64,000 nt of DNA. Origin: Planctomycetota bacterium (GTDB taxonomy: Bacteria > Planctomycetota > GCA-002687715 > CAIWVZ01). Positions 1-6,748 of the stretch are shown piece by piece. Below the pieces are notes generated by a model. The model saw nothing but the letters and a program-made list of their open reading frames with translations. It ran no database searches and was not told the DNA's origin. Every line of letters starts with the position of its first letter. Within the stretch, counting starts at the first letter, position 1. The position numbers were made by a program, and so were the translations under genes. Location: NCBI GenBank assembly GCA_044222185.1, contig JBGANV010000005.1, positions 192,001 through 256,000 of the forward strand. The letters run 5' to 3'.

Positions 1-243
1 CCCCAGCAGCGAGGCGAGTCCTTTCACCAACTCGGTCTTGCCGAGGCCGGGGAGACCTTCGAGCAGGATGTGACCCCGTGCCGCGAGCGCGACCACCGTC
101 AGGTCGAGCAGTTCGTCCTGCCCGAAGAGCACCTGCCCCAATCCGGCGCGGATCTTCGCGAGGATGTTGCGTCCGACTTCGATCTCCGCCGGCGCGAGCA
201 GTCTCTCGCCGCCGCGCGTCAACGCACCGCTCCCATCGTTCAC
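1..243 (-). CDS. MoxR-family AAA+ ATPase, N-terminal part (runs off the window start)
   Basis: Manual translation from GTG at 243 (AGGAG RBS at 251-255) gives ...LGQVLFGQDELLDLTVVALAARGHILLEGLPGLGKTELVKGLASLLG. This is the typical MoxR N-terminus with Walker A GLPGLGKT. It is absent from the ORF track because it is truncated. Confidence 0.9.
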   Translation of the reverse strand, partial: MNDGSGALTRGGERLLAPAEIEVGRNILAKIRAGLGQVLFGQDELLDLTVVALAARGHILLEGLPGLGKTELVKGLASLLG

Positions 244-280: not shown

Positions 281-1672
281 TCATTTGCCGGTGGTCGATC
301 CCGTTTCGAAGAACCGCTTGACCACCTCGCGGTGATGTGGCGCGAGGCGGCGACGCCACGCAGCGCCTCCCGTCCCGTCGACGCCAGCACGGCCCGGTGC
401 CGCGGTCTCGACCGGCGCCGCTTCCGGCTCGCGCGTGCCCACGCCGACCAGACTCCACTCGTCGGGAACGCGCGCCCCCGGCGGCAGTTTCTGAGCCTTC
501 ATCTTCTCCGTCAACTCCGGCGTGTCTCCGTCGTAGCGCAGAGGCGCGGCCCCGCCGCCCTCCGTCCCGCCGCCCGCCCCAGTTCCGTCTTCGCGGCGAC
601 CGCCGCGACCCGAGCCGCTTCAATGTCCGTCCCGGCAGGATTCATCGTGCACGTGTTTGGACAGGGCGAGTTCGCGGCGCGAGGCCTCGCCCGCCTTCCT
701 GGCCCGGGCCGGGTCGCCGAGCCCGAGTTTCGCCAGGTCCGCGGCATTGCCGCCGAACTGCTTTGCCAACTCGTCCGCGAGCTTTGCGAGCTCGGCCGGG
801 TCGACGGGCAGGTTCCCGAAGTCTCCGGCCTTCCCCGCGCCGCCGTTCATCCGCTTCAGGAGTTCCGCAGGGAGCTTCTGGGTCAGCCCCTGCTTGGCGG
901 CATTCTCGAGGAACCTGGTCAGACCTTCCCTGAGGTCCGCGCCGGCTGCGCCCTCCATCGCCTCGGAGAGCGCCGCAAGTGCCTCCTCGGCTGCCTGCTT
1001 GTGCTCTTCGACCGCCTGCTCGACGCGCTTCTCCAAGGCGTCCACGTCGGTCCACGAGGGGCTCTCACCCGACGCCACCTGCTTTTGGAGGGACTCGAGC
1101 TGCTTCTTGAGCGCGTCGATCATTTCCGGCGTGATGGCGTCGGCCACCGCAGGGTCGGCGAGCGACTTCGCGAGCGAGGCGAGGGCGTCGACGATCGCCG
1201 GGCTCACGGTGGGCGAACGGGGACGGACGGCGGGAAGCAGTGCAACGAGCGCGAGGAACGCGATGGCGAGGAGTCCGTGAAAAACCGGACGCCCGATCTC
1301 CATCCGCAATCGCAGGGGCGCTGCCCCGGCGAGTCGCGCCCTGAGCGTTTCACGCCAGGCGTCGCCCGAGACCTCCAGGTCCGAAACGACGAGGCCTCCC
1401 AGTCCGAGTTCTCGGTCGACGTAGAGAGCGGCGGCTGCGTGCGACGGAACCCGCCGGTTGGCGCGGAGGATCGCCGCCGCCGCGGGAATCGCAAGACCGG
1501 CCGCCCACCACGCTTCGGGCCGCCAGTTCCGGCCGAAACCACGGGCGACGAGGAGGGCCGTCCCGCCAGCGAGCGCCAGGACGGCGAGCGTCCGAGCGAA
1601 GGTGACGAGGGCGACCGCGATCCACGAGCGCGTGCGGACATGGCGGATCGCTGCCTGGGCTTCGGCGAACAT
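281..1672 (-). CDS. MoxR-operon membrane/coiled-coil protein with an in-frame UGA at 620-622 (putative selenocysteine, codon 351; 463 aa if read through)
   Basis: ORFs 620..1672 and 281..514 are in the same frame and separated only by one TGA. Readthrough gives HVHDESCRDGH*SGSGRGGRREDGTGAGGGTEGGGAAPLRYDGDTPELTEKMK...WRRRLAPHHREVVKRFF. N-terminal TM helices and a helical middle region; ends 38 bp before the moxR start. Confidence 0.75.
591..622 (-). promoter_or_regulatory. Putative bacterial SECIS element
   Basis: mRNA reads UGA-AGCGGCUCGGG (11 nt)-UCGCGGC-GGUC-GCCGCGA: a perfect 7-bp stem with a GGUC apical loop. Confidence 0.65.
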
Positions 1673-1764: not shown

Positions 1765-4092
1765 TCACGGTCCGAAGACGATGCGCAGGCCGCGCGAGAA
1801 CGCCCAGCCGAACTGCGCACCCGGATCGGCCTGAACGACCTGAGCATTCAGGACCGTTCCGACGAGCGACGGTACGGACGGCACGCTCCACCAGAACGTG
1901 AGGCCGCCGGCCGGCAACGGCATCACGACCGGGTCGATGGGCTCGACCAGCAGCGTTCCACCCGCCGGCGTCGGCCGGTTGGCGGTGTCCGGCGACGCCA
2001 CCACGGCGGCGATCGTCGCAACCCCCGAGGTGTTGCCGATGTTCACGGCGATCGTCGAACCGAGGGAGGGCGGCCCCGACAGGGTCAGCGGCGGAACCAC
2101 GCCGCCCGTTCCCGGGTAGCCGGTGCCGTAGTTGGCCCATTCGGCGCCTCGGGTCACCGTGACGACGCCGAGCGTGGAGTCGGTGAAGCCGTCGAAGGAC
2201 GCGAACGTGAACGGGTCAGGCCCGGCAAACCCGGCCTCGGGGTAGTAGGTCGCCTGGTTGCCAGCGAGCGCGACCGTGCCGTGCGCCGGCTGGTGAACGA
2301 TGCGCAGGGTCTGCGTCTGGCTCGTGTTCGGGTCCGCCACGGACAACGTCACGGTGACCGGTGCTCCGTTGGACGTCGCGCTGAGGGTCGCAGCCGTCCC
2401 GCGAGCGTTCGGGATCGGATCGTCGCTGTTTGGTCCGTTGTGGCAGGAGTAGCAGCTCACGAGCGAACCGCGGAAGAACGTCTTCGTCCCCCAGTTGGTG
2501 GAGAAGCTCCGATCACCCTGCGCCATCGACAGCACGGTTCCCTTGAAGTTGCCGCCGTGGCAGACGGCGCACTGCGCCGAGCCCGTGTTCTCGACGGTAT
2601 CGCCGTGATCACTCACCCAGTTCTGGCCGATCGGGTGCATGCCGTGCGGACCGCCGTTCACGGTCTGCGGATCGGTGCCGTGGCACGCCGTGCAATCGGC
2701 GATGGTGCCCACGTGCCCCTGGAACGCCAGGGGTTGAACGTTGTCGTTGCCATGAGCCGCGGGGTACTCGGCGTGCGTCGAGCCGTGACATGCCTCACAG
2801 CGAAGTCCGCCGTGGCCCGTCGAGAACCGGAACAGCGAGAACCCGGCGGCGGGCGTGTTGGGATTGGTCGCGAACGTCGCGTCGACGGGTTGGCGGAGCT
2901 GCCCGGAAGCAGTGAACGCGTCGGTGTAACGGATCTGCCCATTGTTGGTCGTCGCCGTTCCCGTGTGGCAGTTCTGGCAGCCCGGCTCCTCGAGCCATCC
3001 GGTACGCGTGGCGGCCCCGACGGCGCTCATGTTGCCGTGGCAGCTCTGACACTGCATCGCGAGCGTTCCGTTGGGTGCGACGGCGGCGCCCATGGCTCCG
3101 CGCAGACAGCGCGTCTCCGAGCCCGGGTGGCATCGATAGCAGGCGGCGCGGTTGCTGCTGGAGTCGAGCGAGAGGCCGTTCACCGGGTCGAGGACCGACG
3201 CGTGGAACGCATGGACCGACGCCGTGAGCGGCGAGACGCCCGCGATCCCGGTGCCCGGCAGCGCGTTCGAGGCGTGGCACTTCGCGCAGAGGATCGGGGT
3301 GCCCTGATTCACGACCGTCGCATGGAGGCCGGCCGAGCTGTAACCGGCGGTGGTGAGGGCCGAGTCGAACGTCGCCTGTCCCAGGTGCCGGTCGTGCAGC
3401 TTCAAGATGTTCAGTCGGTAGTCGCGCTCGGCGTTGGGATCGAAAACCCAACCGGCCGACGGTTCCGCGGCGGGGCCGGCGCCCGAGGCGTGACATGCGC
3501 GGCAGTCCATCTCGTCGGAGACGGGCAGCACGACGTCGGTCGAAGCGAGCGGTGTGCCACCCCCACTGCGGAGCACGAGGCGCATCATCGGGTACGGCCG
3601 CTTGTGACCGGCGTCGTCGTACGGAGTGATCGGGATCCCTTCGGCACTGAACGTGTTCGACGAAGACGCGAAGGACATCGCGCGCGGCGTGTTGGCGGGA
3701 CCTGGCATGTCGAAGCCGGCGAGACCGACGTTCGGTGTGCCCGACGCGCCGTAGAGAGCGTTGGCGAACTGCCAGAAGTTCGTCTTGCCGACTGACGACA
3801 CGTTGATCGAGCCGCTTGGATCCGCGACGGACTCGTAGGTCACGGTGCGCCCTCCTGGTGCCAGGAGCAGGTGCCCATCGGGCTGGATCACCTGGGCGTC
3901 GACCGTGTTGTAGGGCGGGAGGATGGAGAACACCCCGTAGTCCGAGTCCATGCAGTGCATGCCCAGGTTGTTCCAGCCGACGATCTTCCACGTGGGCGGC
4001 GGCGGTGGCGGTGGTGCATCGGAGACGAACCCCGTGGCGACGAACGCCATCGCCAGGACACCAAGCATCAGGACGAACGTGGTGGGTTTCAT
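1765..4092 (-). CDS. Secreted multiheme c-type cytochrome (9 CxxCH) with an Ig-like domain and a conserved C-terminal domain
   Basis: Signal peptide MKPTTFVLMLGVLAMA; WNNLGMHCMD motif; hemes CRACH, CAKCH, CYRCH, CQSCH, CQNCH, CEACH, CTACH, CAVCH, CYSCH; Ig-like QPAHGTV...YYPEAGFAGPDPFTF; GGAG RBS before ATG 4092. Confidence 0.9.
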   Translation of the reverse strand: MKPTTFVLMLGVLAMAFVATGFVSDAPPPPPPPTWKIVGWNNLGMHCMDSDYGVFSILPPYNTVDAQVIQPDGHLLLAPGGRTVTYESVADPSGSINVSSVGKTNFWQFANALYGASGTPNVGLAGFDMPGPANTPRAMSFASSSNTFSAEGIPITPYDDAGHKRPYPMMRLVLRSGGGTPLASTDVVLPVSDEMDCRACHASGAGPAAEPSAGWVFDPNAERDYRLNILKLHDRHLGQATFDSALTTAGYSSAGLHATVVNQGTPILCAKCHASNALPGTGIAGVSPLTASVHAFHASVLDPVNGLSLDSSSNRAACYRCHPGSETRCLRGAMGAAVAPNGTLAMQCQSCHGNMSAVGAATRTGWLEEPGCQNCHTGTATTNNGQIRYTDAFTASGQLRQPVDATFATNPNTPAAGFSLFRFSTGHGGLRCEACHGSTHAEYPAAHGNDNVQPLAFQGHVGTIADCTACHGTDPQTVNGGPHGMHPIGQNWVSDHGDTVENTGSAQCAVCHGGNFKGTVLSMAQGDRSFSTNWGTKTFFRGSLVSCYSCHNGPNSDDPIPNARGTAATLSATSNGAPVTVTLSVADPNTSQTQTLRIVHQPAHGTVALAGNQATYYPEAGFAGPDPFTFASFDGFTDSTLGVVTVTRGAEWANYGTGYPGTGGVVPPLTLSGPPSLGSTIAVNIGNTSGVATIAAVVASPDTANRPTPAGGTLLVEPIDPVVMPLPAGGLTFWWSVPSVPSLVGTVLNAQVVQADPGAQFGWAFSRGLRIVFGP

Positions 4093-4463
4093 GCGCGACT
4101 CCATCCGGTGCACCGCGGTGGCGCGCGGGGTTGCGCCTCGTTCGGGCTTCTCTGACAGGGGTCACCGCGGCGGCCGAGGACGACAGAGGTGCACACTCCG
4201 TACCGGCGGAGGCCCGTGCGCGCGGAATACGACCGTCTCCGTAGCCGCGCCGCCGAGGCCGATTCCCAGCCGCGCCCCCACCGGTGGTATTGCCGAGAAA
4301 TCCACTGACACCGGAGGCGCCCGCGGGCGCCGTGCCACTGCGTGCGGCCCTCACCCGGTCGGGCCTGCGTGCAATTGCTCCACGGTGACGACGTCGACAT
4401 TTCACGCGAGCGAAGCGCCCGGATGCCCGGGATCGAGGGTTGCCGAATGAAACCCCGTTGCAT

Positions 4464-4531: not shown

Positions 4532-6748
4532 ATGGACAGCAAACTCGCCGAGCGCTTCCGCTCCTTCCGCCGCCTGGATGCGACGGCCTCAGCCGCGGTC
4601 GCAGCCGTGCTCGTCTCCCTGCTCGTGGGATGCAGCCAGGGCGAAGGCAACACGACTCAGGCACCGGCCGTCTTCGGCTGGCCCATCCTGACGAGCCCCG
4701 GCCGCCCGGGTTCCCTTGGCTTCACGGCCATCGAGGACCTGAACGGTGACGGGCACCTCGACATCCGAGGAAGCAATCCCGTAGGCGACCTCACGGTCCG
4801 CCTCCTCGGTGTGGGGGGCGCTCGGTTCACTCCGGACACGCCGCTCGGAGGCATCCCAGGGCTGCCGCCCGGCGCCGAACAGGGGGCCGTCGTGGCGGCG
4901 TTCGACCTCCCCGGTGACGACTTGCCGGACCTCGTGGTGACGTGGAGCGGCGGATGGGTTCTCCTGTCGAGTGCCGGACCCGGCGGCTATGCGGCGCGCG
5001 AACTCACGGAATTCGCCCAGCCCGGGGCGTTCGTCACTGCGGCCGTCGGCGTCGATCTGGATGGCGACGGCGACCGCGATCTGGTGACGATCTCCTCGCC
5101 ATCCGGCGCGATCGAGGCGTGGCACGTGACGGGGATGGGGCTCGCGCCGACAGCCTTGGCGATCAGCCCGCTTCTTTCGTCGCGGCTCGTGAGCGGGGAC
5201 GTCGACGGCGACGGGCATCAGGACGTCGTCGTCGTGTCCGGGTTCATCCCACATTCGGTCTGGATCGGGGACGGTCTCGGGGGACTGACGGCGTGGGGCC
5301 GGCTCCCGAACGTCGTCGGCACGCTCGCCGATTGGGACGGTGATGGAGATCTGGATCTGCTGTCGGTGACGCCGTCGACGCTGGCCTGGTGGCGCAACGA
5401 CGGCACGTCGGCGTTCAGCGGCCCCATGTTCCTCGCGCCGCACCCGTCGGCGGTCTCATCGATCGCAACGCTCGCCGTGGGAGACGTGGACGGCAACGGG
5501 ACGCGCGACCTGGTCGAGGGAGACCCGGCGCGACTGTGGCTTCAGCGGACGGATGGAACGCTGGATCGCATCGACCTTCCGATCGCTGGCGGGCAGGCCT
5601 TCGTCGCCGACGTGACGGAAGACGCGCTGCTGGACCTGGTCTTCGTCGGGGATTCAACGTCGGTGCTGCCGCAGAACCCGGACCACACGTTCACGGTTCC
5701 ATCGGGGATCGACTTCGGCGGAACGATCCGGCGCGTGCTGTCGGCACCGCTTCAGTTGGGAGGACCGCGTCGGCTCGTCGTCCAAGCGGGCAACGCGACC
5801 CTCGCGAACGGACCCGATTCGTTGCGGATCGCGGACGTCGTCAGTGGCAACGTCGTCGAACTCTCAGTGGCGTACGCGCCCACGAGCGCATGGAATTTCG
5901 TCGCGCTGACGGACCTGGACGGGGACGGCGCCGAAGACGTCGTGATCTACCAGGGAGCCGGCCTGCAGGTTCTGCGCGGCGACGGAGCGGGCGGGTTCCT
6001 CGCTCCCATCGCGCTCTCGACGCTGGTGGTCGCGGGGCCGGTGGGTTTCGGTGATCTCGACGGCGACGGGGACGCGGACGTCTACGATCCGACGCTCGCT
6101 CGCATCTCCAGCAACCAGTCGTTCGCCTTCAGCTACGCGTTGGGCCCCAACGGTTTCGCTGGGCCATACGCTGCGTTCGAGCCGTGCGTCATCCGCGACT
6201 TCGATGGTGATGGGCGCGCGGACATCGGCATCTTGGCTGGGCGCGGGTCGTCGCCGGGGCTCATCGCCTACGGGCTCGGTGGATCGCCGCCGTCGTTCAC
6301 CGACCTCGTCGCCATCGGGCCGCTCGTGGGGTTGGACGCGGTCACGAACTGGATCGAGACGGACGTCGATGCGGACGGTCGCGTCGATTGGGTCGACGTG
6401 AACCATGGGCTGTGGCTCGCGAACGACGGAACGGGGCGGGCCGTCGGAGCGCCTCACGCCCTCGCTGCGCCCTTCGCCGGATTGGATGGACAGGTCGCGG
6501 ACCTCGATGGCGACGGGCGTCGCAATGACGTTCTCGTTCGCCACGAAGACGGGTTCGATGCGTGGATCCAAACGGGCCCGGCGATCTTCACGCGCGGTCA
6601 GCCACGACCGGCCCGGGCTGGCCCGTCCAACCTCCAGACTCTCGTGATCGCCGACGCCGACGGGGATGACCGCGATGATCTGCTCGCGTGGGAGGGCTCG
6701 AGGCTCCATTTCCTCGCGAACTCGGGCACGGCGCCGCGTGCGCGGTGA
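4532..6748 (+). CDS. FG-GAP/VCBS repeat lipoprotein
   Basis: Lipobox LLVGC after a hydrophobic stretch; many DxDGDGxxD repeats (DLNGDGHLD, DLDGDGDRD, DVDGDGHQD, DWDGDGDLD...). Confidence 0.85.
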   Translation: MDSKLAERFRSFRRLDATASAAVAAVLVSLLVGCSQGEGNTTQAPAVFGWPILTSPGRPGSLGFTAIEDLNGDGHLDIRGSNPVGDLTVRLLGVGGARFTPDTPLGGIPGLPPGAEQGAVVAAFDLPGDDLPDLVVTWSGGWVLLSSAGPGGYAARELTEFAQPGAFVTAAVGVDLDGDGDRDLVTISSPSGAIEAWHVTGMGLAPTALAISPLLSSRLVSGDVDGDGHQDVVVVSGFIPHSVWIGDGLGGLTAWGRLPNVVGTLADWDGDGDLDLLSVTPSTLAWWRNDGTSAFSGPMFLAPHPSAVSSIATLAVGDVDGNGTRDLVEGDPARLWLQRTDGTLDRIDLPIAGGQAFVADVTEDALLDLVFVGDSTSVLPQNPDHTFTVPSGIDFGGTIRRVLSAPLQLGGPRRLVVQAGNATLANGPDSLRIADVVSGNVVELSVAYAPTSAWNFVALTDLDGDGAEDVVIYQGAGLQVLRGDGAGGFLAPIALSTLVVAGPVGFGDLDGDGDADVYDPTLARISSNQSFAFSYALGPNGFAGPYAAFEPCVIRDFDGDGRADIGILAGRGSSPGLIAYGLGGSPPSFTDLVAIGPLVGLDAVTNWIETDVDADGRVDWVDVNHGLWLANDGTGRAVGAPHALAAPFAGLDGQVADLDGDGRRNDVLVRHEDGFDAWIQTGPAIFTRGQPRPARAGPSNLQTLVIADADGDDRDDLLAWEGSRLHFLANSGTAPRAR

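Follow-up and report, generated by a model that had tools for sequence, protein, structure and literature searches.

The subject of this analysis is a gene at positions 281..1672 on the minus strand of a 64,000-nucleotide stretch of DNA from a Planctomycetota bacterium (contig JBGANV010000005.1 of assembly GCA_044222185.1). This whole stretch is referred to as the window. The gene is a 463-codon frame with a single internal UGA at codon 351 (620..622) and a terminal TGA at 281-283, and comparative sequence analysis indicates that it very probably encodes a genuine selenoprotein with selenocysteine (Sec) at the internal UGA. The first part of the gene forms an open reading frame (ORF) at 620..1672 that starts with an ATG at 1670-1672, encodes 350 amino acids (aa), and ends with the residues HVHDESCRDGH directly before the TGA at 622-620. 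Past this TGA the frame stays open for 112 further codons up to the second TGA at 283-281, giving a total of 463 residues with one UGA inside. The original prediction, made from the window's sequence, had treated the ORFs 281..514 and 620..1672 as one frame broken by a single TGA and open for 112 codons beyond it, and both points were confirmed on the minus strand. It had also expected gene callers to split the gene, and the protein database indeed holds only the 350-aa piece (P0002). A TTG at 514 is a possible start for a separate 77-aa downstream ORF. The next gene of the operon is moxR, the beginning of which occupies 1..243 on the same strand before running off the window (Pfam AAA_3, E = 5.7e-62). 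It starts with a GTG at 243-241 with AGGAG ahead of it. The predicted adjacency to moxR is correct, and the distance from the terminal stop is 37 nt rather than the 38 bp first given.

The proposed Sec codon is flanked by distinctive protein features on both sides. The cluster HVHDESCRDGH (residues 340-350, 623..655) lies immediately N-terminal of it and represents a pattern, H-x-[H/C]-x3-C-x(4-6)-[U/C], that recurs in homologs. The 112 codons on the other side (284..619), which are translated only if the UGA is read, encode a Gly-rich linker, a diverged copy of a PGRGGxxRGRGDA box, and an LPPG box, all within a region that is conserved in 29 aligned homologs and in a wider set of 133 sequences. 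Near the C-terminus is a conserved basic helix, WRRRLAPHHREVVKRFF (residues 439-455, 308..358).

A hairpin resembling a bacterial selenocysteine insertion sequence (bSECIS) is located at 591..608. Eleven nucleotides (619-609) separate the UGA from the 5' arm UCGCGGC (608-602), which is followed by a GGUC loop (601-598) and the 3' arm GCCGCGA (597-591). Arms, loop, and spacing are as first predicted, and the 7-bp stem is perfect, with a folding energy of -12.7 kcal/mol. The bSECIS rules that we applied are four constraints from section 5 of a May 2026 review (PMC13188914): a loop of 3-9 nt with a G within its first two positions, an upper stem of 4-16 bp, a distance of 16-37 nt from UGA to loop, and a minimum free energy of at most -7.5 kcal/mol. 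The window hairpin lies within all four, its loop beginning 18 nt after the UGA. A hairpin of equal quality, with the right place and loop type, occurs at 255 of 25,564 sampled window positions (1.0%), and any hairpin of the type occurs at 7.6% of them.

The arrangement closely parallels that of Escherichia coli fdhF, for which we checked the K-12 DNA. In fdhF the UGA at codon 140 likewise has an 11-nt spacer behind it, then a 7-nt 5' arm, and the GGUC loop starts 18 nt downstream of the UGA. This agrees with the earlier statement that this hairpin begins some 11 nt after the UGA and carries an apical GU. Recoding by SelB and tRNA-Sec inside a coding region would be common to both genes. The two stems differ: that of fdhF contains a bulged U and has a longer lower part, whereas the window stem is perfect. 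The window protein bears no relation to formate dehydrogenase. Loops of GUG, GGG, GGC, or CGUGU and spacings of 16-27 nt in other members of the family are further differences from fdhF.

Homologs of the complete protein are widespread in the phylum. A six-frame search of 40 related genomes gave full-length matches across the UGA (query residues 4-459) in six, each with one TGA or none. A TGA in two relatives and a Cys in four others share a column with the window UGA, and no other Cys/Sec column of the alignment is invariant. When 401 genomes of the phylum were searched with a profile, 70 proved to carry the family. Among the 30 best loci, the window's included, the site is TGA in 15, Cys in 12, and neither in three (L048, L053, and L056). 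One more TGA-form genome is G294, and the unbiased frequency is 16 TGA forms among the 70 family-bearing genomes of the 401. Matches with apparent internal stops in G102, G135, and G041 were rejected as Sec sites, being terminal stops, and were removed from the TGA-form count.

We also scanned one genome per species with the C-terminal pattern W[RK]RRLAP[HRQ]H, and the 39 loci so obtained all bear titles naming Planctomycetota or one of its taxa. TGA is present at 33 of these loci, Cys at two, and neither at two, while two are without assignment; nine of the 33 repeat DNA found earlier, and since the motif is typical of Sec-rich clades the ratio of 33 to 39 is not a frequency for the whole family. 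One of the loci belongs to a cultured strain, Engelhardtia mirabilis Pla133, whose copy has KPGGT-U-IGG at the site. In every TGA-form locus the two halves share one frame, with TGA as the only kind of interrupting stop, while the stops that end the genes examined are mixed (15 TGA, 4 TAA, and 9 TAG, n=28). Beyond the UGA, conservation is at the protein level: the box PG-RGG-x-x-RGRGDA is followed by F-x-A/E-x-x-LPPG and by the basic helix W-R-R-R-L-A-P-H-H-R-x-x-V-x-x-F/Y-F. At the site itself, homologs carry Cys, or TGA with a conserved hairpin, instead of the Trp, Arg, or Gly that had been named as the sign of a recent nonsense mutation, and coding conservation continues beyond it.

A library of 1.84 billion cluster representatives contains 2,199 relatives at E <= 1e-3, of which 817 score E <= 1e-30. 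The best 150 of the 2,199 are mostly full length (~450-500 aa), and a few end at profile position ~331-338. These short representatives, the window's 350-aa piece among them, look as TGA forms would when cut by gene calling. The TGA is kept between copies that are only 31-46% identical. Contigs from the public runs of two other studies cover 620-622 without any difference (X2 record 7, spanning 460-1630, and X7 record 17, spanning 531-895). The contigs of X1 were left out of this support as possibly the source of the window's DNA. Among the public runs listed as containing the stretch, there was none of RNA.

Exchange between Sec and Cys has been frequent within the family. A quick maximum-likelihood tree was inferred from 57 family proteins after the Sec column had been masked. 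Parsimony on this tree requires eight changes of the U label, and well-supported branches force at least four Sec/Cys changes, while TGA is retained between copies with only 35% identity. Cys forms fall inside Sec clades (L077 and L089), and the Cys form L033 stands beside the window's copy. Five loci (L048, L053, L056, L070, and L075) lack both Sec and Cys in the linker. They nevertheless retain the PGRGG box and the C-terminal helix, and moxR lies downstream wherever the locus extends far enough. Two other loci carry a pair of in-frame UGAs, 13 codons apart in L052 of genome G111 (HAPG-U...GPGGT-U) and 7 codons apart in L094 (ST-U-RAGEGGT-U), and in both the partner Cys also appears to have turned to Sec.

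The hairpin accompanies the UGA across the family. We tested 40 distinct UGA sites from 39 loci, to which G294 is additional, and 31 of them fall within the bSECIS rules when only perfect stems are allowed. In the same genes, the identical test is passed by 3 of 28 terminal stops and by 2,526 of 14,582 sense codons (17.3%). These positional controls take the place of a covariation count, which would be circular for hairpins aligned by their own fold. The best hairpins at the 12 Cys codons aligned with the site have a weaker mean, -8.2 kcal/mol against -12.7 kcal/mol at the first 16 UGA sites (Mann-Whitney p = 0.0009), and a GU is present in the loop at 13 of these 16 sites but in only 1 of the 11 hairpins at the 12 Cys-codon controls. 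The commonest loops among the 31 passing sites are GUG (9), GGUC (4), CGGGA (3), and GGG (3). At corresponding codons the stems vary while pairing is kept, as in CAC GCC GUG GGC GUG, UGC GCC GUG GGC GCA, and CUC GCC GUG GGC GAG, and the codon-aligned listing shows that the encoded residues change along with these variants. We take the hairpin to be kept as a structure across the family.

The genome that contains the window (7.08 Mb in 16 contigs, 93.8% complete) has the Sec machinery that the original prediction implies. All of its components score above curated cut-offs: selB at 330 bits, selA at 487 bits, tRNA-Sec at 74.7 bits, and selD at 371 bits. The selD gene (G000:C14:427704-428624, L011) carries an in-frame UGA of its own in the context SPGGG-U-ACKIG, and 27 nt beyond it stands GGCGCAG-GUC-CUGCGCC. 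This hairpin shares the G-GU-C apex type and serves as a reference SECIS from within the genome. Across the phylum, selA was found in 290 of the 401 genomes. It is present in 16 of 16 TGA-form genomes and in 24 of the 54 other family-bearing genomes (Fisher p = 2.5e-5, a value that, like the other counts and p-values given here, overstates independence, because the genomes are related). The Sec genes are only partly clustered: tRNA-Sec follows selA on one strand at a distance of ~80 nt (G000:C1:1631186-1632718, L010 and L013), and selB lies ~1.1 Mb from selA on the same contig.

Three other explanations of the UGA were weighed against Sec insertion. The UGA might be an ordinary stop between two genes, one for a 350-aa membrane protein and one for a small downstream protein, with the hairpin serving mRNA stability or attenuation. 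This explanation would fit the 350-aa product given by gene callers, the truncated forms of ~331-356 aa in the protein library, and the TTG at 514 that could begin a 77-aa ORF. It is highly improbable given that the halves share one frame in every TGA-form locus, that the interruption is always TGA while the terminal stops are mixed, that the Cys-form homologs run through uninterrupted, and that TGA forms are confined to selA-positive genomes (16 of 16). Moreover, the window's diverged copy of the first conserved box falls between the UGA and the earliest possible start of the downstream ORF, and because it precedes any downstream start codon the tail cannot arise as a separate protein. A recent nonsense mutation, a pseudogene, or an assembly error has only the bare stop codon in its favour. 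There is next to no chance of this, since TGA recurs in 15 loci of the best 30 and, with nine repeats, in 33 of the 39 from the pattern scan, in copies only 31-46% identical, and the downstream part is conserved as protein. The two independently sequenced contigs match the window at 620-622 and so speak against the sequencing error that had been raised at the outset, and the divergence of the copies excludes a single contaminating sequence behind all TGA loci.

The third explanation is read-through without Sec, in whose favour it counts that the sequence alone does not show the inserted residue: a near-cognate or suppressor tRNA could insert Trp, Cys, or Gly, or the code could be reassigned. 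Reassignment conflicts with the use of TGA as the terminal stop of this gene and of 15 of the 28 homologs examined; since TGA also ends the same genes, the code is not reassigned. The alignment of the site to Cys, the hairpin with its fdhF-type loop and bSECIS geometry, and the strict co-occurrence with selA all point away from read-through by another tRNA, and we regard this explanation as very unlikely. On the sequence evidence, this is one gene with a UGA under long-term selection, accompanied by a downstream hairpin of bSECIS form, with Sec machinery always present and the UGA alternating with Cys. The earlier proposal of a 463-aa selenoprotein accordingly finds support from the Sec genes, the homologs, the hairpin, and the independent contigs.

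The predicted protein consists of a membrane anchor, a long stalk, a flexible linker, and a basic tail. An AlphaFold2 model based on 133 aligned sequences (the window protein and 132 representatives) has a mean predicted local distance difference test (pLDDT) score of 81.5, and residues 1-330 are confidently predicted and all-helical. The N-terminal membrane part (residues 17-148, 1229..1624) is helical with pLDDT > 85 and contains hydrophobic helices at ~17-44, 54-72, and 127-148. Its conserved loop includes the invariant residues D86, G92-G93, and W106. Family-wide counts of Lys and Arg in the 133 sequences fit a topology in which the N-terminus is inside, followed by a transmembrane hairpin, a ~50-residue cytoplasmic loop that carries the invariant residues, and a weaker third transmembrane segment. 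Residues ~149-339 (656..1228) form a long helical stalk of coiled-coil appearance, with helices predicted at 158-338 and only coiled-coil noise from Pfam. A C-terminal helix is predicted with moderate confidence at 445-459. A Foldseek search with the model gave no PDB matches at E <= 0.001, so the fold offers no hint of function.

The linker ahead of the PGRGG box is Cys-rich and very variable. Within the 90 residues before the box, 30 of the 133 sequences have a C-x-G-x-G motif, 72 have other Cys, 10 have none, and 21 are not classifiable, and up to nine Cys are present in the linker among the sequences printed. The recurring context of Sec is H-x-[H/C]-x3-C-x(4-6)-U-x-G-x-G, which appears in the window protein as HVHDESCRDGH-U-SGSG. 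The original prediction had described an HxHxxxCxxxHU metal-binding or redox site. Its His/Cys-rich context stands, and its His directly before Sec does not: this residue is not conserved, most members having GGT-U or CPG-U. The metal or redox role stays conjectural, as some members lack Cys. One clade (L042, L043, L046, L051, and L076) has the arrangement CxxCxG...CPG-U-x-G-x-G, in which Sec completes a CxxU pair. This resembles the CxxCxGxG zinc finger of DnaJ (PF00684) and Anti-TRAP, and x-G-x-G after the Sec or Cys is common family-wide. By contrast, the His/Cys spacings of the other clades are not DnaJ-like, and the window's copy lacks the motif pair.

The gene is the first of a minus-strand operon in which MoxR is followed by a protein of 632 aa that weakly matches DUF4350, an ABC ATPase, a protein of 538 aa, a DUF58 protein, a BatA-N/VWA protein, and a VWA/GATase1-like protein. 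The 538-aa member and a 681-aa member match no Pfam family. In 27 of 30 homologous loci the family gene has moxR directly downstream; of the other three, two break off at the gene itself and L054 shows no moxR within 1.5 kb. The gene thereby heads an operon of the MoxR-DUF58-VWA/BatA ('Bat-like') kind, and it differs from the Pfam-defined components of such operons in that the family is not among them. We predicted a complex between a Cys-form ortholog and its own MoxR (locus L036), which scored 0.51 against 0.00 for the best of three controls and lends weak support to an interaction, with no interface reported. Of 80 solved complexes, 58 reach the mark that this score passes, as do 2 of 110 mismatched pairs, counts that are only rough since our own alignments were used, and passing scores of <= 0.60 comprise only 7 of the 80 solved complexes and both of the passing mismatches. 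Contacts agree to at least 84% between the L036 runs, and the partner has a pLDDT of at least 60. The part of the operon past moxR (L058, 857-13194, minus strand; G000:C15, upstream of the window) combines an ABC ATPase and a DUF4350-like protein with DUF58 and two VWA proteins, one of them with a GATase1-like domain.

We compared the family with databases and with catalogued selenoproteins. The window protein has no match near cut-offs in Pfam or NCBIfam (release 20, June 2026), the best being coiled-coil noise at E = 0.003-0.005 and 15-18 bits, and 15 other family members match no model of either collection. A sequence search of the PDB gave nothing meaningful (L35 at E = 0.1, besides coiled-coil noise), and a word-indexed protein search returned only the gene's own truncated protein and one distant match. 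Table 1 of the May 2026 review lists 119 prokaryotic selenoprotein families and subfamilies, each with a domain identifier, and among these entries there is no MoxR-linked membrane protein and none with this motif (PMC13188914). The string 'Planctomyc' is absent from that review. The 'hypothetical proteins' DG, DW, and DF from the deep-Sep study come from Desulfobacterota (PMC12013277), and their NCBIfam models do not match the family. We found no description of the family in the literature; the supplementary tables of the deep-Sep study (Table S2; PMC12013277) and of a paper on Porphyra planctomycetes (S9 Table; PMC4807772) could list a candidate. A literature search that combined 'selenoprotein' with 'MoxR' gave nothing related at the level of titles and abstracts. 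The nearest parallels in the review are Cys-rich or metal-binding selenoproteins (the FmdB-family putative regulatory protein UxxU, the metal-binding protein UxxU, and MbdU; PMC13188914), which likewise have Sec in place of Cys in a short knuckle, no obvious enzyme fold, and Cys homologs. They differ from the present family in that there is no sequence relationship, and the protein described here is ~460 aa long with a membrane anchor and a stalk and is encoded beside moxR. As far as Pfam, NCBIfam, and Table 1 of the review extend, the earlier statement that this is not a recognised selenoprotein family holds, and we regard the family as a putative new selenoprotein family of Planctomycetota, with a recoding mechanism that is itself standard.

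The best explanation as a whole is that 281..1672 encodes a membrane-anchored selenoprotein of a Sec/Cys-switching family upstream of moxR, with a Cys/His knuckle that would act as a modulating switch on a membrane partner of the MoxR/DUF58/VWA machinery, and we assign it a probability of roughly 0.88. During translation, SelB-GTP carrying Sec-tRNA(Sec) would bind the hairpin as the ribosome arrives at the UGA, and Sec would be inserted. When selenium is lacking, termination at the UGA would leave a 350-residue anchor without the tail. In the full-length protein, Sec and the nearby Cys and His residues would form a flexible, Gly-rich knuckle of the form C-x(2-6)-U-x-G-x-G between the helical stalk and the conserved basic tail, where it could form a selenenylsulfide or hold a metal. 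The linker Cys range from none to many, with some members lacking Cys, and the knuckle is therefore read as an element for tuning or sensing that would sit on a structural membrane partner of the MoxR/VWA machinery, rather than as a catalytic centre. The chances that the protein works physically with MoxR are about even. A redox or metal switch is a tentative assignment, somewhat less likely than not. A more specific version, in which Sec351 would be a ligand or redox partner within a selenium-containing knuckle that senses oxidants or metal and gates a membrane-bound MoxR AAA+/VWA machine, is rather doubtful.

Several observations weigh against this explanation, in addition to the relatedness of the genomes noted above. 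Nine of the 40 UGA sites fail the strict perfect-stem test; several of the nine show bulged hairpins of the same kind, while the first UGA of L052 has no clear hairpin of its own and L055 is a doubtful case. In the window, the folding energy of the 66-nt stretch is ordinary for G+C-rich DNA (z = -0.96, with 36 of 200 shuffles as stable). Bulk stability was consequently dropped as evidence, and because the position and geometry of the hairpin are rare, the signal lies in these features and not in total stability. The RGRGDA box of the window's copy has diverged to EGGGAA, and residues 352-384, around and after the Sec, have pLDDT < 50 and are predicted to be disordered. Cys is missing from the linker in 3 of the 30 loci and in 10 of the 112 representatives that could be classified; the family can thus do without the site, and the five loci that retain the conserved boxes without Cys or Sec imply that the knuckle is dispensable for the core function. 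The topology would place the stalk and the Sec region outside the cytoplasm, a placement that depends on a doubtful third helix. Membership of the DnaJ zinc-finger family was rejected, since the match to PF00684 is below threshold (E = 0.22, 12.2 bits against a cut-off of 32.7). The CxxC...CxxU clade gives other sub-threshold matches to Anti-TRAP (E = 0.39) and DnaJ_bact (E = 0.022), and the DnaJ likeness is best described as motif resemblance rather than membership. The proposed function, a redox or metal switch in a partner of MoxR, draws on the motif pattern, synteny, and one weak complex score.

If accepted, the membrane-anchored selenoprotein would bring the prokaryotic selenoproteome a family beyond the 119 families and subfamilies in Table 1 of the May 2026 review (PMC13188914). 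The phylum is scarcely treated in that literature, and the review makes no mention of Planctomycetes. The protein would also be an unusual type of selenoprotein, namely a non-enzymatic membrane stalk protein encoded beside a MoxR ATPase gene. Should Sec351 gate the MoxR/VWA machine, the protein would be the first selenoprotein component of an AAA+ chaperone-type system, and a tail-less 350-aa anchor made under scarce selenium would render the output of that system selenium-dependent. In at least 40 genomes annotation cuts the protein at 330-360 residues, hiding the conserved tail and misleading studies of MoxR/VWA operons. To our knowledge, the function of these operons is still poorly understood. 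The frequent Sec/Cys switching on the tree offers a natural system for asking what Sec provides over Cys, and the cultured, non-pathogenic carrier Engelhardtia mirabilis Pla133 makes the prediction directly testable.

The family may reach across the PVC group, beyond Planctomycetota. The protein clusters nearest to the Cys-form homolog P0005 by language-model features (score 0.97) are annotated 'hypothetical protein' and have no Pfam family, and Verrucomicrobiota is the commonest phylum among them. Within the window, the upstream neighbour of the selenoprotein gene is a 782-aa ORF at 1765-4113 on the minus strand with nine CxxCH haem-binding motifs and a signal-like N-terminus, as in a multihaem c-type cytochrome, and it ends 92 nt ahead of the start of the selenoprotein gene. 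Divergent from this cytochrome gene, a 738-aa ORF at 4532-6748 on the plus strand has repeated DxDGDG and VxGDxDGDG motifs and resembles a repeat protein of the FG-GAP/VCBS type.

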